DNA of 64,000 bases from Candidatus Komeilibacteria bacterium RIFOXYD1_FULL_37_29 (GCA_001818495.1 MHKS01000004.1:161235-225234), one strand, 5' to 3'; numbered from the stretch's first letter, positions 23,182 through 47,893 are shown. Program-made: numbers and translations. Notes: generated by a model from the letters alone, not told the origin.

Positions 23182-23970
23182 ATGGATTACAGCTTGATAG
23201 TTGACGAAGTAAAGAGGGTGGCAAACATAACAGAAACAGCTTTTTTGAAAAAATGGCAGGCAATACCTATTATTGACAACAGAGAAAAGTTATTGCTCAT
23301 TCCTGAAAATTTTTGTTATCCATTTTATGCTAACACTATGAATATCACTGAAGATAAAAGAATTTTTTTAAGAGAGGTGACATTTTTAATGTTTGTAAAA
23401 GCATATGAAATACTCGGGGGTCTCGGTTTGGAACTTAGAATATATGATGGTTGGAGGCCGGTTAGCTTACAGGAACAGCTTTATTGGTTGTATATGAAGC
23501 AATTTACAGTATGTAAATTTTCTAACATAGCCCCTTTGTTTTCTCAAGCTATTTTGGCTACAGAAATTAAAAATGTTTTTAGTTTATTGGTCAAAAAAAC
23601 TCAAGAAATCCTGCATAAATTAAATAGGAGATATGTAAGTTGGCCTTCAAACAATAGAGATTTTCCCAGTCCTCATGCTACTGGCGGAGCTGTGGATGTT
23701 TGGATATTACAGAATGGTAAGTCTGTAGATTTGGGGGTCAATTTTGACTCTATGGAAGAATCTGCTGGTGCTTTCTATCATTTGCGTAATGATAGAATTA
23801 AGTTTAAAAATGATGATCGGGTATGCTACTATAGGAATGTATTGCTTTATGCCATGGTTAATGCTGGATTTTCTTGCTATCCGCCAGAGATTTGGCATTT
23901 TAATTATGGTAATCAAATGCATGCTTTGGTTACTAAAAAAGTAGCGAATTATTCATATATTGAACCATAG
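23182..23970 (+). CDS. VanX/DdpX-like D-Ala-D-Ala dipeptidase (peptidase M15D family)
   Basis: The family motifs are present in order: DGWRP, SPHATGGAVDV...DLGVNFDS.EES (S-x-H-x-x-G-x-A-x-D...D...E) and C-terminal GF...EIWHFNY. A strong GGAGG RBS sits 7 nt before the ATG. Confidence 0.6.
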   Translation: MDYSLIVDEVKRVANITETAFLKKWQAIPIIDNREKLLLIPENFCYPFYANTMNITEDKRIFLREVTFLMFVKAYEILGGLGLELRIYDGWRPVSLQEQLYWLYMKQFTVCKFSNIAPLFSQAILATEIKNVFSLLVKKTQEILHKLNRRYVSWPSNNRDFPSPHATGGAVDVWILQNGKSVDLGVNFDSMEESAGAFYHLRNDRIKFKNDDRVCYYRNVLLYAMVNAGFSCYPPEIWHFNYGNQMHALVTKKVANYSYIEP

Positions 23971-24029
23971 TCTGGCAGAGAATATATATAATATGTTCTC
24001 TGCCACTAATAATTTTAAAATTATATTTT

Positions 24030-25067
24030 ATGTCAAAGAGAATGAAGATAGCTATTGTTGTTGGCGGTGTATCAAACGAAAGAGATATTTCTATAAAAAG
24101 TGGGCAACATATTTTTGATCATTTATCTAGTATTAACTATGATAAATGTTTTGTTGAAATTACCAAAGAGGGCAAGTGGCTTTTATCTGGCGATAAGTTG
24201 AAAATAGGAGACGGTGTTTCCAAAAATAAAACTTTGTCTATATTATATTCCCAAAGAGGTATAAACAAAAATGACCTAGAAAGTTTTGATGTAATATTTT
24301 TGGCTTTGCACGGAAAATTCGGGGAGGATGGTAAAATCCAGTCCATATTGGATATTATAGGCATACCATATACTGGCTCGGGTGTATTGGCTAGTGCTTT
24401 ATCCATGAATAAGGCCAAGACTATGCAATTTTTGAGGAGTATGGACATTAAAACGCCGAAATTTTTACAGCTATTAAATAAAAACGATATAGATTTGAAA
24501 GTAGTAGATAAATTTATAGTAGAGAATTTTGGTTATCCTTGCATAGTAAAGCCAAACGAATCAGGATCTAGCATTGGTATCAACATAGTGCATTCTGTTA
24601 GCGATCTGTCGCCGGCAATAAAAGAAGCTTATCAGGAAGATAATCAGATATTAATTGAAGAGTTTATAAAAGGCAGAGAATTTACTTGTGGAGTATTGGG
24701 TAATAGTAATCAAAACAAAATATTAGCTTTGCCACCGGTGGAAGTATTAACTGATAGGAAATTTTTTGATTATGAGGCGAAATATATTTCTAAAAACACC
24801 AAAGAAATTTGTCCAGCTGATATACCTAGTAAATTAGCAGAGGATATTCAGTCTTTATCTCAAAGAGTACATAGGGCCATTGGTTGTGATGGACTTACAC
24901 GTTCGGATTTCATATTAAAAAATAATGAGCTTTATTTTTTGGAAATAAATACCTTGCCAGGACTTACAGAAGGAAGTTTGTGCCCCAAAGAGGTAAAAGC
25001 AGTCGGCATGACTTTTTCAGAATTTTTAGATAAACAGATAAAGTTAGCAATAGAAAAACGTAAATAA
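24030..25067 (+). CDS. ddl: D-alanine--D-alanine ligase
   Basis: MKIAIVVGGVSNERDISIKSG, LHGKFGEDGKIQSILDIIGIPYTGSGVLASALSMNKAKT and EINTLPGLTE are canonical Ddl ATP-grasp signatures. Confidence 0.85.
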   Translation: MSKRMKIAIVVGGVSNERDISIKSGQHIFDHLSSINYDKCFVEITKEGKWLLSGDKLKIGDGVSKNKTLSILYSQRGINKNDLESFDVIFLALHGKFGEDGKIQSILDIIGIPYTGSGVLASALSMNKAKTMQFLRSMDIKTPKFLQLLNKNDIDLKVVDKFIVENFGYPCIVKPNESGSSIGINIVHSVSDLSPAIKEAYQEDNQILIEEFIKGREFTCGVLGNSNQNKILALPPVEVLTDRKFFDYEAKYISKNTKEICPADIPSKLAEDIQSLSQRVHRAIGCDGLTRSDFILKNNELYFLEINTLPGLTEGSLCPKEVKAVGMTFSEFLDKQIKLAIEKRK

Positions 25068-25934
25068 ATGAATAAAAAATGTTACATATTAATGAATGCC
25101 GATGGTCCAGAAGAGTTAGCATCGATCTTATCAGCTAAAGATGTTTTTAGGGCAGTAAAATTTTTTTATGATCCAACATTATTAAAATTAACAAAAGATA
25201 ATTGGTTTAGAAAAATACAGACTTTAGATAAAGGGTCTATTTGTATCTTAACAACACATGGCGATTTTGGCGAAAATGGTAGTCTGCAAAAAGTATTAGA
25301 AATAAAAAAAATTGCTCATACACATTCCCCAGCAACAGTTTGTGGTATTTTACTTAATAAACATTTAAGTAAAATGTTTTATAAATCTTTAGGCATCAGT
25401 ACTCCGTCCTGGTATTTTAATGACAATATATATGGTTGCAAACTCAATAAAATGTTTTCTAAAAAGTTTGTGAAAAAGCCGTTATTAGGAGGCAGTAAAG
25501 TAGGTATAAAGAAAGTAAACAATATATCTAGTGGTGATGTTGATCAATATATCTATGAAACATATGTCGACGGTTCTATACAAATTAGTATGAGTATTTT
25601 AGGAAGCGGTGAGAATGCATTGTCTTTGGCACCAGTTATAAGAAAGAGGCCTCTTTTTGCCGCTTCAAAATACAGTATCTCTTATAATAAGATAGATCAG
25701 CGGATAATAGATAAATGTGGAGCTTGGGCGAAAAAAATACACATATCATTAGGATGCCGTGGAGTAACAAAAACAGATTTTTTGCTAGATAAGTATGGGG
25801 AGATTTGGGCCATTGAAACAGACGCTATTCCAGGATTGTCAAAGACTAATGCAATCTCAATAAGTGCAGAAAGGTCGGGTTTAAGTTACAGAGAGCTAGT
25901 AAGTAAAATTTTACAAGATGTTTATGTCGAATAA
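25068..25934 (+). CDS. divergent, N-terminally truncated D-Ala-D-Ala-ligase-like ATP-grasp protein
   Basis: ILTTHGDFGENGSLQKVLEIKKIAHTHSPATVCGILLNKHLSK parallels LHGKFGEDGKIQSILDIIGIPYTGSG...NKAKT of the upstream Ddl. C-terminal ETDAIPGLSKTN parallels EINTLPGLTEGS. Its start overlaps the ddl stop. Confidence 0.55.
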   Translation: MNKKCYILMNADGPEELASILSAKDVFRAVKFFYDPTLLKLTKDNWFRKIQTLDKGSICILTTHGDFGENGSLQKVLEIKKIAHTHSPATVCGILLNKHLSKMFYKSLGISTPSWYFNDNIYGCKLNKMFSKKFVKKPLLGGSKVGIKKVNNISSGDVDQYIYETYVDGSIQISMSILGSGENALSLAPVIRKRPLFAASKYSISYNKIDQRIIDKCGAWAKKIHISLGCRGVTKTDFLLDKYGEIWAIETDAIPGLSKTNAISISAERSGLSYRELVSKILQDVYVE

Positions 25935-27297
25935 ATTAGCTTTATTTGGAGGAAAGCCTTTGGTTAAAGATCATAAGAGATTAAGGCTTGATTGGCCCAT
26001 TGTAGATAAAAGTGACTATGGCGCTATTAAAAAAGCTTTTGATGATAGAGATTTTTCTGGTAGGGGTTCAAAAAGAATATCTGATTTAGAATACATTTTT
26101 TCAAAATATTATGATGGCTTATATGCAACGGCTTTAAACAGCGGAACAGCGGCACTGCATTTGGCGTTGATTTCTTTGGGTATTAAGCCTGGCGATGAGG
26201 TGATAGTACCAGCTCTAACTTTTGTGGCGACAGCCATGAGTGTGATACATAATAATTCTATTCCAGTATTTGCTGATATTGACCGTAAAAATTTTAATAT
26301 ATTACCATCCAGCATAGAGAAGAACATATCAAAAAGAACTAAGGCGGTTATAGTAGTGCATTTGCATGGAGCCCCGGCTGATATGGATCCCATAATAAAA
26401 ATATGCAGAAAATATAAGTTGAAATTGATAGAGGATGTAGCTCAGGCACCAGGCGCTACTTATAAGGGTAGAAAAATTGGTACATTTGGCGACGCAGCTA
26501 TATTCAGTTTGATGTCCCAAAAAAATTTAGCTACTTGTGGCGAATGTGGAATTTTATTGAATAAAAGTAAGAATGATAAAAATAGAGCAGAGATGGCACG
26601 TATTTATGGTGAAATTGTTAAATCTAATACTGAAAGGATTTATAATTCATATACTCTGGGTTGGAATTACACATTAAATCCAATTCAAGCGGCTATGGCC
26701 ATTAGCCAACTAAAAAAATTTAATAAGATTACTAATGAGATACAATATAGAGCTAGAAAATTAAATAATGCCCTTAATAAATTTGGCTGGATTTTGCCAC
26801 CAGTCGAATCAGAAGGAACTGAAAGCGTTTTTCATTTTTATAGGTTCCAGTTAAATTCTAATTATTTTGATTATAAGTGTGTTGGTAGATTCAGACAGGC
26901 TGTGCAAGATGCTCTAAATGCCGAAGGTTTGAATGTCAGACATTATCAGAAGATTCCTCTGGCCGGGCAGCCATTTTTTCAAAAAAATGATATAAATAAA
27001 GAATTGCCCTGGTCATTAAATAGTAATAGTTATATTTATAATATAAATGATTATCCAAATACTTTAGAAGTAATTAATAGCACACTAATTCTTGGAGCGA
27101 TTAGTTCTGCTCCTGGCTATCTGCTTTGTCCGGGTACGATAGAAAAATATTTATTAGGTTTTGAAAAAATTGATAAAAATATTCATAAATTGCTCAGTTA
27201 TGCTGATGGTATCAAATATTCGGAACCATGGGAAGAAATGAAAGTCATATCAGATAGTTTTGGAGCTAAATATGGGGTATTTTCTAGTGGTGGCTAA
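25918..27297 (+). CDS. DegT/DnrJ/EryC1/StrS-family PLP-dependent aminotransferase with C-terminal extension
   Basis: LNSGTAALHLALISLGIKPGDEVIVPALTFVATA and the later FSLMSQKNL (Lys-containing PLP-site region) are present. Its 459 aa compare with a typical 370-400 aa. Confidence 0.8.
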   Translation: MFMSNKLALFGGKPLVKDHKRLRLDWPIVDKSDYGAIKKAFDDRDFSGRGSKRISDLEYIFSKYYDGLYATALNSGTAALHLALISLGIKPGDEVIVPALTFVATAMSVIHNNSIPVFADIDRKNFNILPSSIEKNISKRTKAVIVVHLHGAPADMDPIIKICRKYKLKLIEDVAQAPGATYKGRKIGTFGDAAIFSLMSQKNLATCGECGILLNKSKNDKNRAEMARIYGEIVKSNTERIYNSYTLGWNYTLNPIQAAMAISQLKKFNKITNEIQYRARKLNNALNKFGWILPPVESEGTESVFHFYRFQLNSNYFDYKCVGRFRQAVQDALNAEGLNVRHYQKIPLAGQPFFQKNDINKELPWSLNSNSYIYNINDYPNTLEVINSTLILGAISSAPGYLLCPGTIEKYLLGFEKIDKNIHKLLSYADGIKYSEPWEEMKVISDSFGAKYGVFSSGG

Positions 27298-28009
27298 ACA
27301 GATTAATTATAAAATTATTATGGGAGTTGTAGATAAAATTTTGTATAATTTTAATAACGGTGTTGATATATTGAGTTGTAATAATGACTTGTCATTAGTT
27401 GATTGTTCAGGAAAATTATATGAGTATGAGACAAAAGTTAATTTAGATAATTTTGGTGATCTTGCTGAAACACTTAGAATAATTAAATCATTGAAAATAT
27501 TAAAATTTGAAAATAGATCGGAGATGCATTATTTATTTAACATTAGTGAAAATATAATCGCTTATCTAGTATTTGTTGATGGGCTTTCTCAAGTTTGGAT
27601 AAAGTTTAAATATGATATTAACAAAATCAACACAAGTGAGTTTAAGATACCATTGATATTAAGAAGGGGTAAAAAATTTCGTCCGGGTGATTATAATTAT
27701 AAGAGAGCGTTTCATACTCTTATGAAAGGGAAATATTATGATTCTTATTATAAAAAATGTATAAATTATTTTTTTAGGTATAATAATTTTTTTTATTCAC
27801 TTTCTTTATCTTTAGTCAATAATCAAAACGGTTTTCAGCATAATCAAATGGAATTTGAATATGAAGGTGTATTAAAAGGCATGGATAATCCAAATAGGGA
27901 GGATATATTAAAAGGTTTTGATTTACTTTTTAAAAATTCATTTCCTTTCCTATTTGGTAAATTTAATACCGAAACAAAATATGAAGCATTGAAAAATCAA
28001 TTTCGTTAA
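27260..28009 (+). CDS. hypothetical protein with possible CYTH-like (triphosphate-tunnel) signature (very tentative)
   Basis: It has LYEYETKV (ExExK-like) and C-terminal MEFEYEGV (ExExE-like) strands. The true start may be the ATG at 27320 (MGVVDK), just after the degT stop. It is extremely A+T-rich. Confidence 0.35.
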   Translation: MELNMGYFLVVAKQINYKIIMGVVDKILYNFNNGVDILSCNNDLSLVDCSGKLYEYETKVNLDNFGDLAETLRIIKSLKILKFENRSEMHYLFNISENIIAYLVFVDGLSQVWIKFKYDINKINTSEFKIPLILRRGKKFRPGDYNYKRAFHTLMKGKYYDSYYKKCINYFFRYNNFFYSLSLSLVNNQNGFQHNQMEFEYEGVLKGMDNPNREDILKGFDLLFKNSFPFLFGKFNTETKYEALKNQFR

Positions 28010-28034
28010 AATATAATATTATTATGTAATCAAA

Positions 28035-28499
28035 ATGAATATATATTTAAAAAAACTTATTAAAGAAAAATTTATAAAACCGCTTAAAGTTTTGGATCTT
28101 GGCGCGGAGGATTTTTTAGATGTGGATCATTTAAGACAATTAAATTGGATATGTGAAGGTGTGGATATAAATAATGGAGTTGATTTAGAAAAGTATTTTT
28201 TGTCATCTAACTATCCGTTTGATTTGGTCTTTTCTAATTATGTTATACATAAAATAAAGAACAGGGAGCAATTTGCCAAAATAATTTTTGACAATTTAAA
28301 AAAAGATGGTTGGTTTTTTATACACACTTTTGACAAGACAGACGAGAATAGCCAGTCTGTTTTAACAGAGGGTTATTTGTATGAGATATTATCTAACCAA
28401 GGTTTTAGAAACATTAAAACAAAAGTTTTTAGTTTTTATGATAATCAAGAAAATCATAAACGTTGGCATAAAATATTAGAGGCCACGGGGCAAAAGTAA
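28035..28499 (+). CDS. small class-I methyltransferase-fold-like protein with atypical motif I
   Basis: VLDLGAEDF sits in the motif I position but lacks GxGxG. GVDIN, FDLVFSNYVIH and LKKDGWFF follow in the motif II/III positions. Confidence 0.35.
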   Translation: MNIYLKKLIKEKFIKPLKVLDLGAEDFLDVDHLRQLNWICEGVDINNGVDLEKYFLSSNYPFDLVFSNYVIHKIKNREQFAKIIFDNLKKDGWFFIHTFDKTDENSQSVLTEGYLYEILSNQGFRNIKTKVFSFYDNQENHKRWHKILEATGQK

Positions 28500-28581
28500 A
28501 TGTAAATTATGAAATTTATATATGATCATTGTGATTTAAAAAAAATTGTGGTGACAATATATAAAATAATATTATTTAAAT

Positions 28582-29220
28582 ATGAGAGAATACCTTAACC
28601 TAAAATCAATAAAAGCCGATAAAAAATTACAAGCATTTCTTGCGACTACTCAGAGAGAGTTTAATTCATTTTTTCATTTCAAAATTGTTGAACCGTTGAT
28701 TTTTTTAGTAACAACTCGCCGAGATTTAGATTTGCTGGTCGGTAGGAAAACAGAAAGATGGTTTGTCGGAATGACTAAAAATAATTGTATTTATATATTG
28801 GATAAAAAAAAATTTGCCAAACAATCAAATCATAAAGAGGAAGATTTTTGGCAAACATTAAAACATGAGTACAGTCATATTTATTATACGCAAATAACCA
28901 AAAGTCACTATCCATTTTGGCTAAATGAGGGGCTGGCCTGTCTTCTTTCCGGTAAAAAGCTGGTCCTTAAAAAAGATAGTAAAGATAAACTAGTGAATGT
29001 TTTGTCGTATTTTAATCATAGGGATAGGGATATATATATGGTCGGCCATTACTGGGTAGAGTATTTATTAAAAAATTATGGTAAAAGAAAACTGGTGCAG
29101 TTAATAAAAAATCTAAATTTTAAATCAGAAATAAATAGTCGGCAATTTGTTGATAAATTTTTTAAGATATACGGTTTTAGATTCACCAAAACAAATTTAA
29201 TGAAAATGATAATGTTATAA
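28582..29220 (+). CDS. putative zinc metallopeptidase (gluzincin, Peptidase_MA-like)
   Basis: HEYSH (HExxH) is followed 19 aa later by WLNEGLA (third-ligand Glu), which is the HExxH...E gluzincin arrangement. Confidence 0.5.
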   Translation: MREYLNLKSIKADKKLQAFLATTQREFNSFFHFKIVEPLIFLVTTRRDLDLLVGRKTERWFVGMTKNNCIYILDKKKFAKQSNHKEEDFWQTLKHEYSHIYYTQITKSHYPFWLNEGLACLLSGKKLVLKKDSKDKLVNVLSYFNHRDRDIYMVGHYWVEYLLKNYGKRKLVQLIKNLNFKSEINSRQFVDKFFKIYGFRFTKTNLMKMIML

Positions 29221-29224
29221 ATAG

Positions 29225-29746
29225 ATGAAATTTGTATATGACAAAAAAATAGACAATGAGTGTCATCAGAGAATTAATGCTCGTGATGATATTTTTGGTG
29301 AGAAAATAAAAAAAGACATATATCCTGTTAGTGATGAAATAGTTCAGCAGTTTTCTAATAAATGGACGTCAGAGATAGAAGGGTCTTTTGAAAAGGGGAT
29401 ATTTGAAATATTCAATAAACACATCCCTAAAGATTTTATTTGCTACATTATTTCTAGCCCTTACTCTATGGATATCAAAGAGGGCATAGCTATATCGGCT
29501 TCTTCTTTAGGCGCGATGATAAGAATGATTTGTCATGAGGCCAATCACTATATGTTTCGGCAGAGTAATTATAGAGATAAATATTTTCCGAATATGGATA
29601 TAGAAGACGCCAAGGAAATATTTACTATCGTCAATAATATTTATTTCAAAGATATTATGGAGACGCCAGATAATGGTTGGAAAAAATTTTGGTCGCAGAG
29701 AAAAGGTTTTTTACAGAAATGGCAATCTAATAATTTAAAACAATGA
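29225..29746 (+). CDS. hypothetical protein with an HExxH motif (HEANH), a possible second metallopeptidase-like protein
   Basis: ICHEANHYMF is present. No clear downstream Glu ligand was found. Confidence 0.35.
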   Translation: MKFVYDKKIDNECHQRINARDDIFGEKIKKDIYPVSDEIVQQFSNKWTSEIEGSFEKGIFEIFNKHIPKDFICYIISSPYSMDIKEGIAISASSLGAMIRMICHEANHYMFRQSNYRDKYFPNMDIEDAKEIFTIVNNIYFKDIMETPDNGWKKFWSQRKGFLQKWQSNNLKQ

Positions 29747-30029
29747 ACATTAATTTTAAAAAATTTAATAATAAAGATGTACAGTATTTACTAGTTATGA
29801 TCTTGATATTTTTTTGTTCGATTATCATCACTATTATATGGAGCATGGGGTATGTAGTTTGGTGGTTATTTTCTAAATTAAAATTATATATATTAAAGAA
29901 AAACGATTTTGTGAGTTAATTATCGGTTCATTGACAACAATATCTATCTTTGAATATAAAGATGATGAATAAAAGCGATTTTGGCAGATAACTAGGTTAT
30001 GTTATAATTATTTATAATTAAATAAATTT

Positions 30030-30611
30030 ATGAATAAGAAGATAATAGTGTTATTAAGTGTCTGTATTTTTATATTACTAACTATTTGGGGGTATAATAG
30101 TTTGTATGATTCTGATACTCCAAATAATAATGAAAATATCAATCTTAATAATGCGTCAGATGAAATAGACACTGGTGATTGGGTGGAGTATAGGAATGAA
30201 GCATTAGGGTTTGAATTTAAACATCCGGGTGATTGGATAGTAGAATTAAGAAGAGTAAATTACGGAATACATACTGCAGATGAAGTTTATTTTTATATCA
30301 CAGTAAGTAAAAATAATCCATCAGAGAGTAATCGTTTTTCTAAATTAATAATAACCACTTTTGAAAATATCGAAGGGAAATCTCCGGAAGAAGTGATTTC
30401 TATAAATGAAAATTTTTCTCTTAATGAATTTCAGAGTTTATTTTTAGATGATTTTTTGTTAAATGGAGTGATAGTTAAAAAATATATGATTCCTGGTTTT
30501 ATTTCTTTGCCAGCTGTAATTTTTTATAGTAATGATAAAGTACACCAAATAAAATATAGTCTAGAAGAGGATATGTTTATGGAGATTATGGATACATTTA
30601 AATCTATATAA
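30030..30611 (+). CDS. signal-anchored or secreted hypothetical protein
   Basis: It has an N-terminal hydrophobic segment IIVLLSVCIFILLTIW. No recognisable motifs were found. Confidence 0.5.
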   Translation: MNKKIIVLLSVCIFILLTIWGYNSLYDSDTPNNNENINLNNASDEIDTGDWVEYRNEALGFEFKHPGDWIVELRRVNYGIHTADEVYFYITVSKNNPSESNRFSKLIITTFENIEGKSPEEVISINENFSLNEFQSLFLDDFLLNGVIVKKYMIPGFISLPAVIFYSNDKVHQIKYSLEEDMFMEIMDTFKSI

Positions 30612-30786
30612 TAATTAAAATTTATATTCGAGGATAGAGAGTTTAAACAATTGGGTTTAGACTCTTTTTGTGTTCTTTAACAATTAAATAATAAACAAGA
30701 AAGGAGATTTGCCGATGATTTTTTGGCAGGAGATTTGTAACTTGTCGTAGTCTGTAAACAAAAAATTTTCGAAAAGGAGTATTGTC

Positions 30787-33700
30787 ATGCAAAAGATCAT
30801 AGTATTTATTGTGGCGTTGATGTTGTTCAACATTAACCTTTTTGCGCAAACCGTTCCAATGGCTGATGGTTTTCAGTTGCCATTATATGAGTATGATATT
30901 AGTGATAATTGTCTTGAGTGGGGCGGTTGGGGGTCTAGTTTTTATGAAGGACAGCGTCATTTAGCAGATGATGAATGTTCTCCGTCTGGAACGGAAGTTT
31001 TCGCATCGGCCAATGGTATTGTTCGTTTCTCTCATAACAATGGGTCTTGCCCTGATAACTGGGGACCTTTGATTGTAATTGAATCAAACACAAACAACGG
31101 TAGTGTCTGTGTTATTTATGGACATGTTGTAAGTGAACCATCAATTATTGAAGGAGGTTCAGTAGTTAGAGGTCAAAAAATTGGGAAAATTGCAGACGGT
31201 ACTGGATGTTGGTCTGATCATATTCATTTTGGTATTTACATAGGAGAATATGGAATGCCCAACGGCGAATATCCTGGCTGGCTTCGTGGTTATTTATTTC
31301 CTGGTGCATGGCCAGGTAATTATGTTGACCCTATATGGTATGTAGAAAATAATCCCCCCAGCTCTTCATCTACCGTTGGTTGTTTTAGCACTAATGACTG
31401 TAGTGGTGCTGTATCATTGTCTTTTCAACAAAAGTATAATGCTATGGCTACTGCGGGGCATCCTTTGGGGAATCCATGGGACAACGGCGGTTCTATCTAT
31501 GTTCATGAAGTAAATGGTATGTATATCCAAGACTTCCAGGATCCTCGTGATCAGGGCGGTCCTAGCAATGGATATTATCATCCATACACTGCACTGATCT
31601 ATGATGCTGCTACTGTTTCTACGGCCAATGTCCGTTTGCTAAAAGAAGGCTTTTGGGATACTTGGATGAATAATACTGGTTGGGTCAATTTTGGCTCACC
31701 GATTACTGACGAGTATTCTAATGGTGGGGAGATTTGGCAAACATTCCGTCGTTATGGTCAAAACTATCCTAGTAATCAGAGTGATTATGAGAATTTCTAT
31801 TTTACGTGGAATTCTAACACTCAATTACTGGAGGTTTTGGACAAAAACTATAATCCGGTGGATTTTTCACAATTGACCGTTACTACTGCTGATATTTTTA
31901 CTAGAGTTTTTAAAAGCGCTAGTTTAAATGATTCAACCTCAAATGAATTTAAGCAGTACAATGGACTGGATTATAGTTTAAGTGATAGTACGGGCGGCGG
32001 ATCACGATTAGTGTCGGATACTAAGATTAGTATTGCTAAGGTGACATCAACTACTACGGAGCCAGAGGGAGTCTATCATTCTGGTTTAATAGTCAGTAAT
32101 CTTGGTCAGCCTTTTCCTTTAATCAATCAGCGTGATTATGATAATTTTTACGCTGTGATTAATGGAACAGTAATACCAATTGATCCATTCACTATGAATG
32201 GTGATATGACTATTTACGTTGGCGGTTCTTCGTCTGGACCGGATATTCAATTTAGTCATTGGACTATTTATCCTAATCCAGGGACGGTTGGTCAGCAGAT
32301 TCATGTGGAAGGACAGATAAATAATCAAGGTTCTTCATCTGTTACTTTATCAGAAGTAAGAGTGGAGTTTTTTGATCCTAATGGTACGGAAATATATCAC
32401 TGGTCTGAGTACAATGTTACTCTAGATCCGGGATATTATTGGTACCAGTGGTTATATTGCTATCCCTACATTTCTGGTAATTATACGGCTCGTTTTCGTG
32501 GGCTCATAAATGGTCAATGGCAAACTTATTCCACACAAACTGTTTATGTTCAGAATAATCCTAATTACCCAGTAGCTGATTTTACTAGTAATCCTTTATC
32601 TGGTCCAGCGCCATTGACTGTTCGGTTTACTGATTTATCAACCAATAACCCCAAACGTTGGCAATGGTTGTTTGGAGACGGTAGCGTCTTGCATGATGTT
32701 CAAAATCCACAACATACTTTTGTCAATCCGGGAACTTATACTGTTGATTTATTGGTATTCAATGATTTTGGAGGCGATCGGATAATAAAAGGAGGATTCA
32801 TAACTGTTTATGAGGCAGTTGTGGCCAACTTTACATCTGATGTCGTTTCTGGATCAGTACCCCTGACTGTCCATTTTACTGATCAGTCAACTGGCAACCC
32901 CACATCCTGGTATTGGGATTTTGGTGATGGCAATGTGTCGTATGACCAGCATCCACTACATACATATGTAGTAGCCGGCATATACTCAGTGTCTTTGACA
33001 GTTGGCAACCAAAATAGTTCAAATGTCAAGGTAGTTTCCAATATGATTACAGTAAAGGAAACGTTTGATCATTGTGCTATAGGGATATTAACAACTAAGG
33101 ATAATGGAGGTGGATGGAGGGGATTTACTATTCGTGGTAATTACGCTTATGTGGCCAATGGATTGCTAGGCTTGCAGATAGTGAACATCAGCAACCCGGT
33201 AGCACCACAGATCATTGGTTCGGTAAATACCCCAGATTATGCTTTCCATGTTTCTATTTTGGATAATTATGCCTATGTATCTGATGGTTCATCAGGCTTG
33301 CAGATAGTGAACATCAGCAACCCGGTAGCACCACAGATCGTTGGTTCGGTGCATCTTCCAGATAGAGTATATGGAGCATCAATTGTTTCTAATTTCATTT
33401 ATGTCTTTGATGCTGGTTCTAGACTCAGTATTTTTGATGCCAGTAATCCAGCATCACCAACTTTGGTCAACTCACTAGTCCTACCGGCCAATGTCACCGG
33501 CATCAGTTTTTATAAAACTTATGCTTATATGACCAATGGCAGTTATGATTTGCGTATTTTTGATATTAGCAACCCGGTAGGGCCAGTTCTTCTTAGCACC
33601 AAGAGCTTACCTGGCTATGCCTCTGATGTTTATGCTGATAGCAATTACGTTTATGTGGCTGCTTATGCGTCTGATTTGCAGATAGTCGATGCCAGCAATC

Positions 33701-34512
33701 CAACATCACCACAACTAATTGGTTCGCTCGATTTATCCTACTATGCTTTGGAAGTTGTGGTTTCCGATGGATATGCTTATGTTGTTAATGTTGATCCGGA
33801 CACTTCTAGTGTTGAGATAATTGACATTAGCAATCCAGCATCACCAGCGCTTGTAGGATCTGTTGGTTCAGCTTATGATCAGATTATGGATATAATTGTA
33901 GAGGATGGTTTGGCTTATATGACAGATTATCAAGGAGGCTTTGCAATTGTGTCGCTTGATTGTGCTTTGCCGGCTTCACCAAACTTCACAGCTACTCCAA
34001 AGTCTGGCTACTCTTCTTTGACTGTTCAATTTGCTGATCAGTCAACGGGTAACCCTACTTCATGGTACTGGGATTTTGGTGATGGCACTACATCGACTCA
34101 GCAAAATCCGCAGCATATCTATAGAGGAGGTGGCAATTGTACGGTTAGTCTTACTGTTAGTGATGGTGATTTTACCAACACCAAAATCATTGACAATTTC
34201 ATTACGATCAAAGTCAAAAACTTTAAAGATGATCGCAAGATGGAATTGTATGCAAACCACCCCAACCCTTTTAATCCTAGTACTACTATTAGTTATTCGT
34301 TGCCAACATCGCAACACGTTAGCCTAGTGGTTTATAACATACTAGGCCAAGCAGTAACTACTCTAGTAGATGGAATGAAAGAAGCAGGGGAACATTCAGC
34401 AATTTGGGATGGTCGTAATGATCATGGCAGTCCAGTTTCTTCGGGAATGTATTTTTACCGACTAACTACTGTTGAGAGTTCAATTGTTCGTAAAATGATC
34501 TTACTAAAATAA
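30787..34512 (+). CDS. large secreted multidomain protein: signal peptide, M23 peptidase domain, Ser/Thr/Gly/Asn-rich region, 2 PKD domains, LVIVD-type beta-propeller repeats, a third PKD domain, and a C-terminal T9SS(Por)-type sorting-domain-like region
   Basis: It has a signal peptide (MQKIIVFIVALMLFNINLFAQT). The M23 motifs HLADDE...GTEVFASANGIV...GQKIGKIADGTG...DHIHFGIY are present. PKD signatures such as FTDQSTGNPTSWYWDFGDG occur three times. GLQIVNISNPVAPQI-type LVIVD repeats are present. The C-terminus HPNPFNPSTTISYSLP...VSLVVYNILGQAVTTLVDG...AGEHSAIWDGRNDHG..VSSGMYFYRL matches the T9SS type-A sorting-domain pattern. An RBS AAAGGAG sits 8 nt upstream. Confidence 0.8.
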   Translation: MQKIIVFIVALMLFNINLFAQTVPMADGFQLPLYEYDISDNCLEWGGWGSSFYEGQRHLADDECSPSGTEVFASANGIVRFSHNNGSCPDNWGPLIVIESNTNNGSVCVIYGHVVSEPSIIEGGSVVRGQKIGKIADGTGCWSDHIHFGIYIGEYGMPNGEYPGWLRGYLFPGAWPGNYVDPIWYVENNPPSSSSTVGCFSTNDCSGAVSLSFQQKYNAMATAGHPLGNPWDNGGSIYVHEVNGMYIQDFQDPRDQGGPSNGYYHPYTALIYDAATVSTANVRLLKEGFWDTWMNNTGWVNFGSPITDEYSNGGEIWQTFRRYGQNYPSNQSDYENFYFTWNSNTQLLEVLDKNYNPVDFSQLTVTTADIFTRVFKSASLNDSTSNEFKQYNGLDYSLSDSTGGGSRLVSDTKISIAKVTSTTTEPEGVYHSGLIVSNLGQPFPLINQRDYDNFYAVINGTVIPIDPFTMNGDMTIYVGGSSSGPDIQFSHWTIYPNPGTVGQQIHVEGQINNQGSSSVTLSEVRVEFFDPNGTEIYHWSEYNVTLDPGYYWYQWLYCYPYISGNYTARFRGLINGQWQTYSTQTVYVQNNPNYPVADFTSNPLSGPAPLTVRFTDLSTNNPKRWQWLFGDGSVLHDVQNPQHTFVNPGTYTVDLLVFNDFGGDRIIKGGFITVYEAVVANFTSDVVSGSVPLTVHFTDQSTGNPTSWYWDFGDGNVSYDQHPLHTYVVAGIYSVSLTVGNQNSSNVKVVSNMITVKETFDHCAIGILTTKDNGGGWRGFTIRGNYAYVANGLLGLQIVNISNPVAPQIIGSVNTPDYAFHVSILDNYAYVSDGSSGLQIVNISNPVAPQIVGSVHLPDRVYGASIVSNFIYVFDAGSRLSIFDASNPASPTLVNSLVLPANVTGISFYKTYAYMTNGSYDLRIFDISNPVGPVLLSTKSLPGYASDVYADSNYVYVAAYASDLQIVDASNPTSPQLIGSLDLSYYALEVVVSDGYAYVVNVDPDTSSVEIIDISNPASPALVGSVGSAYDQIMDIIVEDGLAYMTDYQGGFAIVSLDCALPASPNFTATPKSGYSSLTVQFADQSTGNPTSWYWDFGDGTTSTQQNPQHIYRGGGNCTVSLTVSDGDFTNTKIIDNFITIKVKNFKDDRKMELYANHPNPFNPSTTISYSLPTSQHVSLVVYNILGQAVTTLVDGMKEAGEHSAIWDGRNDHGSPVSSGMYFYRLTTVESSIVRKMILLK
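33168..33350 (+). repeat. 57-bp direct repeat (33168-33224 and 33294-33350, one mismatch) inside the large gene, corresponding to adjacent LVIVD repeats
   Basis: aggcttgcagatagtgaacatcagcaacccggtagcaccacagatc(a/g)ttggttcggt occurs twice, 126 bp apart. Confidence 0.85.
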
Positions 34513-34732
34513 GATCAAAACCCTTTCTGTTTGTTGTTTAGTAAACAAAGCCCCATTTAGTTTAACTAGGTGGGGTTTAAAATTTAATGGAGCAAAAAAC
34601 ATTGTGCTAAACACGGTGTTTTTTATTTTTTTACTTACTGATAAAAAGTGGGAAGAAATACTAAAAAGAAAATCGCTCGCCGTAGCTTTATGCGTAGGGG
34701 GAGCGATTTCTTATATTCCTCAGATGAAATGA

Positions 34733-34849
34733 CTAGGACTGGAGAGCCCTCAAGATGCAAATTAGGAAAAGTAGCCCGATTTTAGACAGGCTCCACCAGA
34801 GGGCAAGTTTGCCAATGGTGTCATGGATAACATCCTGTTTGTTGGTCAC
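34733..34849 (-). CDS. 38-aa hydrophobic mini-protein (MTNKQDVIHDTIGKLALWWSLSKIGLLFLICILRALQS) with GTG start; putative
   Basis: A perfect SD (AAGGAGG) sits 5 nt upstream of the GTG. A downstream hairpin ATCGCTC...GAGCGAT plus T-run at 34678-34712 lies on the same strand. It is below the ORF-track size cutoff. Confidence 0.35.
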   Translation of the reverse strand: MTNKQDVIHDTIGKLALWWSLSKIGLLFLICILRALQS

Positions 34850-35031
34850 GATTTCCTCCTTGGAAATGTATATATAAGTAGTTTATTACAACGTTGTGAT
34901 TAAAGAACAAATACAGATTATTATTATAACATTGGTTTTTATAGCAGTCAATAACATTTGAATTATTATTTCCAAAAACTCCATATAAATGGTATAATAC
35001 CAACACAGTTTAATATTAATTTTACTATATT

Positions 35032-35409
35032 TTGTATATGCGCAAGGATTATATAGCGATTTTTTTGGTAGTAGTGGCCATAATTTTGGGCATTATTTTT
35101 TATTTTAATGGTTTTAAAGCGGAAAACAAAAATGTCTTAAAATATACCGCTGGTTGTAGCTCAGAAAAAATAGACGCTTCGGTCTATGGTTTGCGTGGTG
35201 ACACCAGCCGGATTGGTGCTTTTATTAGTTTTGCCGAAGTACCTCTTAGTGGCGATGTCAGAACTCAACTTACCGAGTTGGGTGTGGCCTTAAAAGAAGA
35301 TACCTGGATTTTTGATTATGCTATTGCTGAAATTCCCACCGAATCTTTATGTATTTTGGCGGAGCGGGATTTTGTCAAAGGAATATTTATACCTCAAACC
35401 AATAATTAG
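35032..35409 (+). CDS. small membrane-anchored hypothetical protein
   Basis: It has an N-terminal TM segment IAIFLVVVAIILGIIFYF. It lies immediately upstream of pgk. Confidence 0.5.
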   Translation: MYMRKDYIAIFLVVVAIILGIIFYFNGFKAENKNVLKYTAGCSSEKIDASVYGLRGDTSRIGAFISFAEVPLSGDVRTQLTELGVALKEDTWIFDYAIAEIPTESLCILAERDFVKGIFIPQTNN

Positions 35410-37877: not shown

Positions 37878-39443
37878 ATGTCAAATATAAAAAAAAGAAA
37901 TTTACCTTTGTTTTTGTTGATTTTGGACGGCTGGGGGATTTGGAAAGAAAAAAAAGGCAATGCCATTGCCCTGGCCAAGACGCCAGTGATCAACGGACTT
38001 TATAAAAAATATCCGCATACTTTACTGCAAGCGTCAGCCAAGTTTGTGGGCCTACCTAGCGGTCAGCCAGGAAATTCCGAAGCTGGCCACATGAATATTG
38101 GTGCTGGTCGAGTAGTCGAGCAAGATGCTGTTATTATTTCCAAAAGCATCAACAACGGCACATTTTTTAAAAATCCAGCATTTTTGCAAGCGGCTCGCCA
38201 CGCCAGTGACAATAATTCCAATATCCACCTGATGGGGCTTTTATCAGATGGCTCCAGTCCACACTCCGACATTGATCATCTATTGTCTCTGATTACTTTT
38301 TTTACCAGTCGGACTAAACAAAAAATCTATTTGCATCTTTTTACTGATGGGCGTGATTCACCACCCTTTGCCGCTTTGAAAATTCTTAGTCAATATAAAT
38401 CTGTTTTTAATTCTAATCGGGTTAGTGTGGCGACCATCATGGGTCGGTTTTATGCCATGGATAGAAAAAAATCTTGGGCTAGAACCAAACAAGCTTTTGG
38501 TGCTTTGGTTATGGGTAAAGGTTATCTGATTAAATCAGCTACGGAGGCAGTGGAGCGGGCTTATAATCGAGGGGAAAGTGATGAGTTTATAAAACCATCA
38601 GTGGTGGTCCATAAAAATAAAAAACCAGTCGGAGCAGTACAGAGTAATGATACTATGGTATTTTTCAATTTGCGATCTGATCGCGCCCGGCAGCTGACCA
38701 AAGTTTTTGCTCAAAATGATTTTACCAAAAAAAATAAGGGAGCCTTTTCTTTGGGCCGCAAAATAACCAATTTATTGTTTGTGGCTTTGACTGATTTTGG
38801 TCCGGATTTGGAAGGCGTTTTGACAGCTTATCCGGGTATGGATGTGTCCGATACATTACCGATAGCTTTGCGCGGTTTACGTCAATGCTATATTGCCGAA
38901 ACCGAAAAATACGCCCATGTTACTTACTTTTTAAACGGTGGTTATGATCATCCAGTGGCCAATGAAGATTGGGTCAATATTCCTTCCAAAGATGTAGACT
39001 CTTATGCTGATCAGCCGGAGATGAGTACCAATGAGCTCACCAAAAGAGTCTTGGGTGATTTAAAAGATAATCCTTATGATTTTGTTCTGATGAATTTTGC
39101 GGCGCCTGATATGGTGGGGCACACTGGTAATCTTAAAGCGGGTATTAAAGCAGTGGAAATAGTTGATAAGGCGGTTGGTCAAATTATTGAGGCAGTGTTG
39201 GCTAAAAAAGGCACGATCATTATCACCGCTGATCATGGTAATATCGAAGAAATGATTAATCTTTCTACTGATGAGATTGATACTGAACACTCTATCAATC
39301 CAGTACCTTTTATTGTTATCAATCACCGTAGTTATAAATTGAAAAAAAATGGTAAATTATCCAATATTGCACCAACTATTTTAGATATTTTTGGTATTCA
39401 AAAACCAAAACTCATGAATGAAAAATCTTTAATTGTTAAATAA
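37878..39443 (+). CDS. gpmI: 2,3-bisphosphoglycerate-independent phosphoglycerate mutase (copy 1)
   Basis: LLILDGWGI, the GNSEAGHMNIGAGR catalytic-Ser motif and C-terminal ITADHGN are present. Confidence 0.85.
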   Translation: MSNIKKRNLPLFLLILDGWGIWKEKKGNAIALAKTPVINGLYKKYPHTLLQASAKFVGLPSGQPGNSEAGHMNIGAGRVVEQDAVIISKSINNGTFFKNPAFLQAARHASDNNSNIHLMGLLSDGSSPHSDIDHLLSLITFFTSRTKQKIYLHLFTDGRDSPPFAALKILSQYKSVFNSNRVSVATIMGRFYAMDRKKSWARTKQAFGALVMGKGYLIKSATEAVERAYNRGESDEFIKPSVVVHKNKKPVGAVQSNDTMVFFNLRSDRARQLTKVFAQNDFTKKNKGAFSLGRKITNLLFVALTDFGPDLEGVLTAYPGMDVSDTLPIALRGLRQCYIAETEKYAHVTYFLNGGYDHPVANEDWVNIPSKDVDSYADQPEMSTNELTKRVLGDLKDNPYDFVLMNFAAPDMVGHTGNLKAGIKAVEIVDKAVGQIIEAVLAKKGTIIITADHGNIEEMINLSTDEIDTEHSINPVPFIVINHRSYKLKKNGKLSNIAPTILDIFGIQKPKLMNEKSLIVK

Positions 39444-39467: not shown

Positions 39468-41045
39468 ATGAAAAGACCACGTCCAGTTGTACTCATTATT
39501 TTAGATGGTTTCGGTATTGCACCGCCTTCTCGGGCCAATGCTATTTCTTTGGCTAAGACGCCAAATTTTGATAAATATTCTCAAAATTATCCGATTATGC
39601 CGATAGCGGCTAGTGGTGAAGCAGTGGGACTTTCTTGGGGAGAAATGGGCAATTCTCAAGTCGGGCATCTTTCTTTGGGTTCGGGTGTTATCCCTTATCA
39701 AAATTTGCCTCGCCTTAGTAAGGCGATTGTCGATGGAGAATTTTATCAAAACGAAGCTTTTTTAAAGGCTTGTCAAAATGTTAAAAAAGGTGGCGGAGCT
39801 TTACATTTGATTGGTTTGGTCAGTTCTGGTGGTATTCATAGTTACAATGAACATCTCTATGCTTTGATAGATTTGGCTCATCAGCAAAAAATAACCAAGG
39901 TCTATGTTCATGCCTTTTTAGACGGACGAGATACACCATATAATAGTGGCATTAATTTTATTAGTAAACTTCAAGAGAAATTGAAAAATGTTGGTGTCGG
40001 TACTATTGCTAGTTTGAGTGGTCGTTTTTGGGCTATGGACAGAGACAATCGCTGGGATAGAATTGAGAAAGCTTGGCGCGTCATGGTGGACGGTCAGTCT
40101 GATGAGAAGTTTGAAGATCCACTAGTAGCTATTCAAAAATCTTATGACAAAAAAGTTTACGATGAGGAATTTAATCCCACAATAATTACCAATGATCTTG
40201 GTCAGCCACGAGGAACTATTAAAGACGGGGATAGTGTCATATTTTTTAACTTTCGTTCTGATAGGGCCCGGCAGTTGACCCAAGCGCTCACTTTGCCTGG
40301 CTTTGAAAAGTTTAAAAGAGCTTATTTTAAAAATCTTTTTATGGTCACTATGACCCAATATGAAAAAGATTTGCCGGTCGCTGTGGCTTTTCCGCCGTTA
40401 GATATTGCTATGCCACTAGCTCGGGTTTTGTCGGAAGCCGGATTAAAGCAGTTCCATATCGCCGAAACCGAAAAGTATGCGCACGTTACTTATTTTTTTA
40501 ACGGTGGTAAAGAAACTGTCTATGAAGGCGAGGACAGGGTCCTGGTGCCATCACCCCAGGTTACTTCTTATGATCAAAAGCCGGCTATGTCCGCTCGCGA
40601 ACTGGCTTCCAAAATTAACCAAGCGATCAAAGAGAGTCAATATGATTTTATTGTAGTCAATTTTGCCAATCCCGATATGGTAGGACATACTGGCAATATG
40701 CAAGCCACTATTGAAGCTATTGAAATATTGGATCAGTTGGTTGGAGAAATAGTTGATACTATCCTGTCTTATGGCGGAGTAGCTTTGATTACAGCTGATC
40801 ATGGTAATGCTGAAAAACTTTATGATCTGCAGAGCGGAGAAATCAATAAAGAGCATTCCAACAATCCAGTACCTTTTTTTATTGTAGGCGATGAATATGC
40901 TGGTAAAAGCGTCTTGGCTGGAAATATTGGTACGGAATTAAGCCATGTGACTCCAGTGGGAGTTTTGGCCGATGTACCACCAACCATACTAAAAATTATG
41001 GGAATAAAAAAACCACCAGAGATGACGGGCAGTTCTTTGATTTAA
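39468..41045 (+). CDS. gpmI: 2,3-bisphosphoglycerate-independent phosphoglycerate mutase (copy 2, divergent tandem paralogue)
   Basis: LIILDGFGI, GNSQVGHLSLGSG and ITADHGNAEKL are present. The two copies share the motif skeleton but differ widely elsewhere. Confidence 0.85.
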   Translation: MKRPRPVVLIILDGFGIAPPSRANAISLAKTPNFDKYSQNYPIMPIAASGEAVGLSWGEMGNSQVGHLSLGSGVIPYQNLPRLSKAIVDGEFYQNEAFLKACQNVKKGGGALHLIGLVSSGGIHSYNEHLYALIDLAHQQKITKVYVHAFLDGRDTPYNSGINFISKLQEKLKNVGVGTIASLSGRFWAMDRDNRWDRIEKAWRVMVDGQSDEKFEDPLVAIQKSYDKKVYDEEFNPTIITNDLGQPRGTIKDGDSVIFFNFRSDRARQLTQALTLPGFEKFKRAYFKNLFMVTMTQYEKDLPVAVAFPPLDIAMPLARVLSEAGLKQFHIAETEKYAHVTYFFNGGKETVYEGEDRVLVPSPQVTSYDQKPAMSARELASKINQAIKESQYDFIVVNFANPDMVGHTGNMQATIEAIEILDQLVGEIVDTILSYGGVALITADHGNAEKLYDLQSGEINKEHSNNPVPFFIVGDEYAGKSVLAGNIGTELSHVTPVGVLADVPPTILKIMGIKKPPEMTGSSLI

Positions 41046-44425: not shown

Positions 44426-45664
44426 CTAGTCTACCAGTCCGCCGGCATTGTCCTGCTTATGAGCAGGGGTAGTGGGCGTGGTGGGTGGGCCAGCATTGAT
44501 CAGCGAAAGGTTTTCCGCGTCAGTTCCTGCTTTGAGCGGATCTTTTTCGCAGACTTGTCCGATGACCTGCATCTTGTCGCCGACTTCGACGACTACTTGA
44601 CCACCGATCAATGACAGTCGAGCCAGAGTTCCGAAATCAGAGACGTCGATTATTCTCGCCTGTCCGTCATCGTGAGGCAGGAGAACAAATCGATTCGGGG
44701 ATGTTATACGAACTTCCCGGTACGGCTGAGCGTCAGCCGACATAGTCACTTTTTCCAGAGCATTTTTCACTGACTCTTCTTCTGTGACCACCGGCCACAC
44801 CTGCTGGTTGACTTCAACCACTTTCATGTCCTGCCGTGGTCTGATCTGATCCTTAGAAAGAGGAGTCATACCATGGCCGCCGCGGACATCATTGCCACAG
44901 CGCATCAAAGAGAGATAGAAAGACCCGCCATCATCGAGGAAACACTGCCAGGCTGGTGTCCAATCTGGGATATTTTTTTCCACCGGATTATTGGATTCGC
45001 CGTAGCAGATTAGCATCGGGCCTTTGACATCGACGGCTACGATACGAGTAATATGAACCAGGGGCGGCATGAATCGTGTTTCCTGAACACTCATAGCGAG
45101 TCGCTCGTTTTCATACATATTCGTAAAGTAAGCCACAGCAGCTTCGACTGTTGGCAGTCCGCCTTCCACTCGATCGGGACCATAGTAGGGGTCCTCGACC
45201 TTGCGTCGGTTGTCATTGTCGCGTTTGGCTCTTTCTAAGCCAAATTTGTACATCACCCATGCAACGGCCACCAGCAATAGCCCGATGAGCCAGTCGGCCA
45301 TTTTGTCTGCTGGCAGATCAGCATAAACAACCTTTGGCACACGAACCGTATCAGTTTTAGTGGTGGCCAGATTGTGGCCACCAATCATAAACCGAAACAG
45401 TCGGAGCATAGAGGGAGGGACGTTCAACCTGTCGCCAGGTCTGATTAAATCAGCATCATCAAGTTGAGGATTAAATCTAACCAGTTCCTGCCACAAGGTC
45501 GGATCGCTGAACGCTATTCCCCACTGACCGACTCGGTCGTCATTGTCCACGATGTAATCGTAGGACCCGTCAGCCTGCTCAATGAGCTGGCCTTTCGGAG
45601 TCTGGGCACCGCAGAGGCTGACCGTCGTGATCAGTAGTAACATAACGTACCAAATACGTAGCAT
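44426..45664 (-). CDS. LysM-domain membrane protein, compositionally foreign (G+C-rich)
   Basis: It has an N-terminal signal-like segment. A LysM-like motif YIVDNDDRVGQWGIAF...LVRFNPQLDDADLIRPGDRLNVP is followed by a TM helix ADWLIGLLLVAVAWVMY and about 270 aa of unknown domain. Sampled stretches are about half G+C, against roughly one third to two fifths elsewhere (by eye). Confidence 0.6.
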   Translation of the reverse strand: MLRIWYVMLLLITTVSLCGAQTPKGQLIEQADGSYDYIVDNDDRVGQWGIAFSDPTLWQELVRFNPQLDDADLIRPGDRLNVPPSMLRLFRFMIGGHNLATTKTDTVRVPKVVYADLPADKMADWLIGLLLVAVAWVMYKFGLERAKRDNDNRRKVEDPYYGPDRVEGGLPTVEAAVAYFTNMYENERLAMSVQETRFMPPLVHITRIVAVDVKGPMLICYGESNNPVEKNIPDWTPAWQCFLDDGGSFYLSLMRCGNDVRGGHGMTPLSKDQIRPRQDMKVVEVNQQVWPVVTEEESVKNALEKVTMSADAQPYREVRITSPNRFVLLPHDDGQARIIDVSDFGTLARLSLIGGQVVVEVGDKMQVIGQVCEKDPLKAGTDAENLSLINAGPPTTPTTPAHKQDNAGGLVD

Positions 45665-46734: not shown

Positions 46735-46744
46735 ATTTTTAGAA

Positions 46745-46876
46745 ATTAAATATAGATAGCCGTAGACAGTGGGTTTTGAGCTAGAATTAGCTCAAATTAA
46801 AGATCCTACCGAGGTGAAAAAGATAAATTTTTCAATGTCTGCGCTATTTACGCAGATTTTTTAATTAATAAAAATT
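46745..46876 (+). promoter_or_regulatory. rplJ 5' leader with L10-leader-like hairpins and an intrinsic attenuator directly before the start codon
   Basis: It contains a hairpin GAGCTAgaatTAGCTC (46778-46793) and a hairpin TCTGCGctatttaCGCAGA plus TTTTTT (46838-46862), 15 nt before the ATG. L10(L12)4 autoregulation of rplJL via a leader structure is established knowledge. Confidence 0.5.
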
Positions 46877-47859: not shown

Positions 47860-47893
47860 AAATCCCCTTACTAAATCAGTGGGGGATTTTTTT
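47860..47893. terminator. bidirectional rho-independent terminator after rplL, overlapping the stop of the convergent gene
   Basis: aAAATCCCCttactaaatcagtGGGGATTTttttatt is an 8-bp stem flanked by an A-run and a T-run. Confidence 0.75.

Follow-up and report, generated by a model that had tools for sequence, protein, structure and literature searches.

A Candidatus Komeilibacteria gene joining an M23 peptidase head, PKD and propeller modules and a T9SS-type C-terminal domain

Introduction

What does a sorting domain of the type IX secretion system (T9SS) do at the end of a putative cell-wall hydrolase, in a lineage that is not expected to have such a system? The question is raised by a stretch of 64,000 nucleotides from Candidatus Komeilibacteria bacterium RIFOXYD1_FULL_37_29 (GCA_001818495.1, MHKS01000004.1:161235-225234), referred to below as the window. 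The gene concerned encodes a large modular protein in which an M23 peptidase head is joined to PKD domains, a beta-propeller and a T9SS-type C-terminal domain (CTD); its database entries for Candidatus Komeilibacteria, OGY93722.1 and OGY95834.1, call it a 'hypothetical protein'. Identical copies of the protein occur in two NCBI assemblies and on 15 groundwater contigs of Rifle type, and metagenome-assembled genomes labelled Patescibacteria, Komeilibacteria, Parcubacteria and Falkowbacteria encode close homologues. The gene is already public, as a hypothetical or PKD-domain protein, and what is new here is the interpretation, not the sequence.

The host, an ultra-small groundwater bacterium, matters to any answer. 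Genes of the window include those for ribosomal proteins, translation factors and glycolysis, and its peptidoglycan genes comprise FtsW, PBP2, a Mur ligase, two Ddl paralogues, a VanY-type M15 peptidase, bacA and yceG. According to published reports, bacteria of the Candidate Phyla Radiation (CPR) have no outer membrane and neither TonB/ExbBD nor PilQ, and their type IV secretion system (T4SS) is of monoderm type. A preliminary description of this DNA had gained the impression of a streamlined, monoderm-type organism; since the sequence is deposited as Komeilibacteria, a CPR lineage reported without an outer membrane, that impression is supported.

Two features of the locus are unusual, namely an apparently orphan T9SS-type CTD that is under selection, and a conserved pairing of the hydrolase with a PsbP_2-like protein within a rare family. 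The reading that we favour, and to which we would give about an even chance, is that the product is exported by Sec and acts at the surface of the Candidatus Komeilibacteria cell as a modular peptidoglycan hydrolase and adhesin that has a partner protein and whose CTD is used for binding or anchoring, not as a T9SS signal.

The protein and its T9SS-type C-terminal domain

From the N-terminus, the protein runs through a signal peptide, an M23 domain, a rare central domain, a CARDB/MG2-like Ig domain, two PKD domains, an LVIVD propeller, a third PKD domain and a T9SS type A CTD (Table 1). The signal peptide, M23 peptidase, three PKD domains, propeller and sorting-type CTD had all been named in the preliminary description, and each was recovered in our analysis. 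The N-terminus, MQKIIVFIVALMLFNINLFA followed by QT, looks by eye like a Sec signal peptide with its n/h/c pattern, and orthologues keep the cleavage site of this putative signal, between A and Q. Profile searches placed Peptidase_M23 (PF01551) at residues 65-152 with 38.0 bits against a Pfam cut-off of 28.7. The residues H58, D62, H113, H145 and H147 are intact and align with their counterparts in zoocin A (HxxxD, YxH, HxH), and H58, H145 and H147 are invariant or nearly so across the family alignment. Zoocin A, a bacteriolysin, is also the best solved sequence match of the head, which was recognised as an M23 fold, and lysostaphin and LytM came out as strong fold matches of its predicted structure.

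The middle of the protein is similarly well covered by known profiles. Pfam PKD models match three stretches above threshold (PKD_4 144.3 bits, PKD 104.5 bits), with an NCBIfam TIGR00864 match spanning residues 624-756 and a Pfam FlgD_ig match of 36.4 bits. LVIVD scores 144.4 bits over six stretches, above threshold, and seven blades can be marked at residues 796, 838, 880, 922, 964, 1009 and 1053, a period of 42-45 aa.

The C-terminus matches the NCBIfam model for T9SS type A sorting domains (TIGR04183) over positions 3-70 of 72, with 50.5 bits where the cut-off is 23. Pfam Por_Secre_tail (PF18962) agrees, with 30.3 bits against a cut-off of 27 at residues 1159-1238 and profile positions 3-74 of 75. 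The match ends 3 residues short of the stop codon and thus lies at the extreme C-terminus, and the domain was recognised as an Ig-like beta-sandwich, with the mirolase CTD and PorU as fold matches. In these respects the protein resembles T9SS type A cargo such as RgpB, mirolase and PorU, in which a Sec signal peptide is combined with an Ig-like CTD of 80-90 aa that matches TIGR04183/PF18962 over its full length.

The domain is not a relic. Its ratio of non-synonymous to synonymous change (dN/dS, Nei-Gojobori) is 0.115 at dS 0.46, so that it is under purifying selection. Among orthologues with an overall identity of 32-42%, the CTD is 43-61% identical. The CTDs of the family have sub-signatures in common, for example N-H-PNPFNP in place of the usual N-Y-PNPFNP, which fits a long co-inheritance of the CTD with the family. 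The nearest CTDs outside the family (50-62% identity) belong to Cloacimonadota, Zixibacteria, Ignavibacteria and Latescibacteria. These are phyla of the Fibrobacteres-Chlorobi-Bacteroidetes (FCB) type, and the module was probably captured long ago from FCB-type proteins.

No T9SS family is present among the recorded Pfam matches for the genes of the window, or in scans of its unannotated open reading frames (ORFs), as the preliminary description had held, and neither T9SS nor outer-membrane families were found in the flanks (up to 10 kb on each side) of the orthologous loci examined. In the window and the fetched loci, a sample biased towards the hydrolase locus, CTD-bearing ORFs were confined to this gene family and two fragments (in loci L013 and L017). 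A protein search with the CTD alone returned mostly short metagenome fragments and is no measure of how frequent the domain is in CPR bacteria; its named matches were all from FCB-group phyla and none was labelled CPR. Full-text literature searches on T9SS-type CTDs in CPR bacteria found nothing relevant.

A rare mosaic family with a conserved partner

The family is defined by its central domain, which contains two LG-x-P...Q-x-F repeats resembling LGFP wall-binding repeats, a linker of low model confidence and a small beta domain. An exhaustive search of 1.84 billion representatives found 53 proteins with this domain at E <= 0.001. The domain itself had no Pfam match (LGFP included, at E <= 1) and no PDB sequence match (E <= 10). 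Compared with the LGFP anchor of Corynebacterium PS1/MytA (6swz), it differs in having two repeats only, followed by an extra beta domain, and in giving no significant sequence score: hhalign against the PS1 LGFP repeats was not significant (E = 0.059, probability 0.9%), and 6swz was absent from the top 50 Foldseek matches.

What surrounds the central domain varies. Among the 53 representatives the N-terminal head is an M23 domain in 40, CHAP in 4 and Peptidase_C39_2 in 3, while PKD domains occur in 24 and LVIVD in 13. The T9SS-type CTD was detected in 16 by Pfam Por_Secre_tail and in about 22 by a purpose-built CTD hidden Markov model, and the alternative C-termini include an FN3-like tail, Laminin_G_3 and dockerin. 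To judge from this domain content, both lytic heads and C-terminal modules are exchangeable within the family. Members without the T9SS-type CTD (P0009, P0012, P0013 and P0014, and those of the loci L034 and L038) have in common a tail of ~90 aa at the C-terminal end ('...LDW..V.GA..Y.VY......FFYVTAV'), which may be an anchoring or sorting module in its own right.

Exchange is also apparent between close relatives. Relative to the closest orthologue (L012/P0002), identity is 90% in the central domain, 92% in the Ig domain, which is the best-conserved region of the whole protein, and 90% in the CTD, and it falls to 56-58% in the M23 head, 52% in the first two PKD domains and 41% in the propeller. 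The core is strongly constrained, with dN/dS of 0.09 in the central domain and 0.04 in the Ig domain. Synonymous divergence differs as well, dS being 1.5-3 in the head, PKD1-2 and propeller against about 0.5-0.9 in the core and CTD, a contrast which argues for different histories of the segments beyond a mere difference in rate. The M23 head of the window gene is equally close to that of P0018 (57%), a protein with a different body that is without the central domain, and to that of its own orthologue (56%). Head and propeller, on this comparative evidence, form a mosaic among closely related proteins.

A second constant of the family lies outside the gene. Directly upstream of the hydrolase gene stands, in 24 of the 32 distinct loci with upstream sequence, a homologue of a small membrane-anchored protein of ~190-230 aa with the motif (V/I)DTSDW-x-TYRNEE-x-GFEF-x-YP. 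The window copy scores 17.3 bits against PsbP_2 (PF18933), below the cut-off of 27; of nine orthologues, three match the full profile with 28.6-31.3 bits and seven have PsbP_2 as their best match. These orthologues were taken from the fetched loci, as a homologue search with the upstream protein itself returned only one copy, 96% identical.

The pair sits in a chromosomal slot that is also kept. A HisKA_7TM sensor kinase lies to one side at some distance, and the PsbP_2-like gene, the hydrolase gene and a gene for a 123-aa protein are then followed by pgk, eno, two iPGM genes, DUF212, bacA, an NTP transferase gene and yceG. This slot is shared with the orthologues P0006 (42% identical) and P0004 (38%), and P0015 (32%) is partly syntenic. 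The contigs of the syntenic orthologues are up to 860 kb long, with about 32-35% G+C.

Proposed role and alternative explanations

We propose that the Sec pathway would suffice to place the protein outside a cell that has only one membrane, and that such a cell would not need the CTD as a T9SS signal. The LGFP-like central domain and the CARDB-like core would bind the cell wall, while the PKD and propeller stalk and the beta-sandwich of the CTD would act as binding or anchoring modules and not as an export signal. The PsbP_2-like partner may serve for immunity or docking, by holding the hydrolase in check or in place on the cell that makes it. The likeliest task of the enzyme would be to cut peptide cross-links where the producer touches a partner or host cell, in the wall of that cell. 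Epibiotic growth of a cultured Patescibacterium has been reported to require a peptidase and a lysozyme, and contact-site cutting would fit this reported need as well as the mosaic head and the RHS toxin gene beside one orthologue. A setting of conflict is also suggested by the mobile-element surroundings of the pair in L022 and L024 and by the match to the bacteriolysin zoocin A. The role in attack or attachment suggested in the preliminary description is, on the strength of the exchangeable heads, the mosaic head and propeller, the partner gene and this RHS toxin, plausible but unproven.

Known bacteriolytic enzymes offer a partial precedent. Zoocin A, lysostaphin and LytM likewise have an export signal, an M23 domain with HxxxD, YxH and HxH motifs and, as is predicted here, a separate wall-targeting domain. 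Unlike these enzymes, the Komeilibacteria protein is five times larger, carries a stalk of Ig, PKD and propeller domains and a T9SS-type CTD, has a targeting domain that is neither SH3b nor the zoocin target-recognition domain, and is known from sequence alone. Its adjacent genes also differ, being PsbP_2-like and the 123-aa gene with no FemABX-type immunity gene, in contrast to the zoocin A/Zif and lysostaphin/Lif pairs. A further system for comparison is formed by the peptidoglycan hydrolases of T4SS loci in Gram-positive bacteria and Patescibacteria, such as PrgK with its LytM and CHAP domains, or the peptidase and lysozyme beside virB4 in Ca. Southlakia epibionticum; unlike these, the present gene has no T4SS gene in its window or in the syntenic orthologous loci. 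Propeller and PKD domains recall the Methanosarcina S-layer protein 1l0q and other LVIVD surface proteins, with the difference that here they would form a stalk on a lytic enzyme and not an S-layer lattice.

Three observations weigh against this proposal. The structure model of the N-terminal part is of moderate confidence only (pLDDT 68.6). A terminator-like hairpin splits the partner gene from the hydrolase gene, so that the pairing does not imply co-transcription. The neighbours, in the third place, are housekeeping genes together with the VanY-type M15 peptidase, two Ddl paralogues, bacA and yceG, and would suit an autolysin equally well.

The main alternative is accordingly that the protein remodels the cell's own wall, a possibility that we take seriously while considering it rather unlikely. 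It would then be a housekeeping autolysin that remodels or splits the wall of its producer, with the PsbP_2-like protein as a membrane-bound regulator and the accessory modules holding the enzyme in the envelope or surface layer. Besides the neighbouring genes just named, vertical inheritance and a fixed chromosomal slot near peptidoglycan genes are what one would expect of such an enzyme. However, housekeeping M23 factors are usually small and conserved, whereas in this family the head is swapped for CHAP or C39-like domains, and even between genomes whose core is 90% identical the lytic head is only 56-58% identical. A stalk of 1000 aa with adhesin domains would also be unusual for a division hydrolase, and a family that is rare and patchy, that occurs on mobile elements and that in one case lies beside an RHS toxin gene does not look like housekeeping equipment. 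For these reasons we continue to prefer a surface hydrolase and adhesin acting on another cell.

For the CTD, the simplest inference is that it is a C-terminal binding or anchoring beta-sandwich, interchangeable with the other tails of the family. We give little credence to the stronger claim that it is kept because it functions either in trans, by docking on the T9SS surface attachment complex or on CTD-binding surface structures of an FCB host in a form of cargo mimicry, or in an undescribed CTD-dependent anchoring route of Komeilibacteria-type CPR bacteria that works without an outer membrane. Were either version true, the PsbP_2-like protein and hydrolase would make up a host-range or attachment module of CPR bacteria.

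The first version can be made more specific. The CTD could be a host-directed tag, docking on PorV, PorU, PorZ or CTD-binding surface structures of an FCB host and so tethering the hydrolase to it. The domain is under selection although no T9SS is expected in the lineage, its closest relatives come from groundwater and sediment FCB phyla, and a C-terminal module that is exchanged among family members behaves as a targeting module might. Against this, the idea is purely inferential, with no precedent found in literature searches, and an M23 enzyme held on the outer face of an outer membrane would still need access to the periplasmic wall. We therefore regard it as improbable.

More improbable again is that the protein is genuine T9SS cargo, which would require an outer membrane and a T9SS in this organism, or in whichever organism the contig really belongs to. 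The CTD itself would suit such a role, being canonical, full-length, C-terminal and under selection, and some of the bins that bear homologues are labelled with the non-CPR names Zixibacteria, Deferribacteres and Gammaproteobacteria. Yet the window was deposited as Komeilibacteria and carries ribosomal and other core genes, the orthologues lie in syntenic CPR contexts on long contigs, and CPR bacteria are reported without an outer membrane. T9SS and outer-membrane families were missing from the window and from the orthologue flanks examined, and in a bin labelled Gammaproteobacteria low G+C and T4SS_pilin genes give the context a CPR character. The family moreover departs from the T9SS cargo of Bacteroidota and other FCB bacteria in that its CTD alternates with unrelated C-terminal modules within one protein family.

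A canonical T9SS sorting domain can, it appears, stay under selection in a lineage that is not expected to have the system. To annotate a protein as T9SS cargo from its CTD alone is therefore unsafe, and the question arises of what a T9SS-type CTD binds outside the T9SS context. The locus may also be of use in a wider sense. Beyond type IV pili and a few hydrolases, the means by which CPR bacteria (Patescibacteria) attach and feed are largely unknown, and a concrete candidate is offered by this rare family, whose predicted surface peptidoglycan hydrolases have exchangeable heads and C-terminal modules and a conserved PsbP_2-like partner.

Age and origin of the gene

The preliminary description had called the gene compositionally distinct and possibly a horizontally acquired cargo. 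Of the first part only the total G+C holds up, the gene being richer (0.400) than the mean of the window genes (0.358) and visibly richer than the block directly upstream (0.25-0.31). At third codon positions, however, its G+C (GC3) is native: the value of 0.307 is close to the 0.319 averaged over the window (z = -0.16). It is the second position that carries the surplus, with a value of 0.421 that is the highest of the window genes, and the surplus so reflects an amino-acid composition rich in Gly, Ser, Thr, Pro and Ala.

The second part does not hold. Orthologues of 32-42% identity in the same syntenic slot of other CPR genomes, together with the native GC3, show the gene to be old and vertically inherited in this CPR clade; GC3 and synteny thus rule out recent horizontal transfer and a compositional island. 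A transfer of the whole gene from an FCB-type bacterium in recent times, with the CTD as a decaying relic, is very unlikely: the higher total G+C and the FCB affinity of the nearest non-family CTDs would agree with it, but GC3, synteny and the selection on a CTD that shows no decay speak against it. What remains likely is that the CTD module, not the whole gene, entered the family by a transfer that was ancient rather than recent. A phage origin was considered and set aside, with one partial match only in a viral contig collection.

The real compositional outliers of the window lie elsewhere, in the A+T-rich small genes at 27260-30611 and in a G+C-rich ORF at 44426-45664. The latter, a 412-aa ORF on the minus strand with a G+C of 0.517 and a GC3 of 0.541 (z = +3.0), is the strongest outlier of all; it has no recorded Pfam family and a weak LysM match of 16 bits. 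Its 234-aa neighbour at 45944-46648 on the plus strand is likewise G+C-rich (0.451), and it is these two ORFs, rather than the M23 gene, that look compositionally foreign.

Neighbouring genes and other observations

The positions of the gene, its domains and its neighbours are collected in Table 1.

Table 1. Features of the hydrolase locus, in positions of the window
Feature	Position	Strand	Remarks
Hydrolase ORF	30787..34512	+	1241 aa, ATG start
Sec-type signal peptide	30787..30849	+	aa 1-21, MQKIIVFIVALMLFNINLFA before Q; read from the sequence by inspection
M23 (LytM-type) zinc peptidoglycan endopeptidase domain, predicted	30850..31341	+	aa 22-185
Central domain, family-defining	31342..32241	+	aa 186-485
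CARDB/MG2-like Ig domain	32242..32556	+	aa 486-590
Two PKD domains	32557..33081	+	aa 591-765; FGDG motifs at residues 629 and 712
Seven-blade LVIVD beta-propeller	33082..33951	+	aa 766-1055; Pfam LVIVD
Third PKD domain	33952..34230	+	aa 1056-1148
T9SS type A CTD and stop codon	34231..34512	+	aa 1149-1241, ...NHPNPFNPSTTISY...SGMYFYRL...RKMILLK
PsbP_2-like partner gene	30030..30611	+	193 aa; N-terminal membrane anchor, PsbP/Mog1-type extracytoplasmic domain
Terminator-like hairpin	30636..30667	+	13-pair stem and T-rich tail; consensus match only
Terminator-like hairpin downstream of the hydrolase gene	34594..34624	+	13-pair stem and T run; consensus match only
123-aa membrane-anchored protein	35038..35409	+	kept downstream in syntenic relatives; module membership uncertain

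The gene for the 123-aa protein has homologues directly downstream of the hydrolase gene in two related loci (L008 and L015) and only a very divergent match in a third (L010); the protein has no Pfam match. It is separated from the hydrolase gene by a non-coding gap of 525 bp (34513-35037), unusual for a compact genome. On both strands the gap has stretches that resemble promoters and terminators, but a search of Rfam gave nothing at threshold, and no convincing small ORF was found.

Several related loci have neighbours of their own. In L025 (13382-19888) a 2168-aa polymorphic toxin of SpvB/RHS/TEN_YD-shell type lies directly downstream of the orthologue P0015. The PsbP_2-like and hydrolase pair occurs beside a TraG/VirD4-like coupling protein, a Replic_Relax relaxase and a phage-type integrase in L022 (5369-16248), and among a resolvase, DNA methylases, MutH and helicases in L024 (5317-23439). 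In L013 an in-frame TAA at 13424-13426 stands between the orthologue P0003 and a 321-aa tail of three PKD domains and a T9SS-type CTD in the same frame; the break comes from a nonsense mutation, the splitting of the gene or faulty assembly. As the stop is TAA, UGA recoding is not the cause, and an alternative genetic code was ruled out. The bins of L013 and L014 are titled 'uncultured Gammaproteobacteria', and the family members they hold lie in CPR-like contexts (T4SS_pilin, RNase J, 35-37% G+C). L014 is identical to L010 over the locus, and the Gammaproteobacteria labels of both bins are doubtful.

Upstream of the pair, between the sensor kinase and the PsbP_2-like gene, the stretch 23182-30611 is variable. 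It contains the VanY-type M15 peptidase, the two D-Ala-D-Ala ligase paralogues, a DegT aminotransferase and five A+T-rich small ORFs, among them a methyltransferase, a Peptidase_MA_2-like protein and unknowns, and syntenic relatives hold other genes in that slot (Transglut_core, an M16 peptidase, MazG). Downstream, after pgk and eno, two iPGM paralogues stand in tandem (37878-39443 and 39468-41045), a duplication that is kept in the syntenic relatives. Beside the L10/L12 operon, a 704-aa ORF on the minus strand (47892-50006) has no Pfam family above threshold and weak, probably spurious matches, and an L10 leader RNA was located at 46742-46871.

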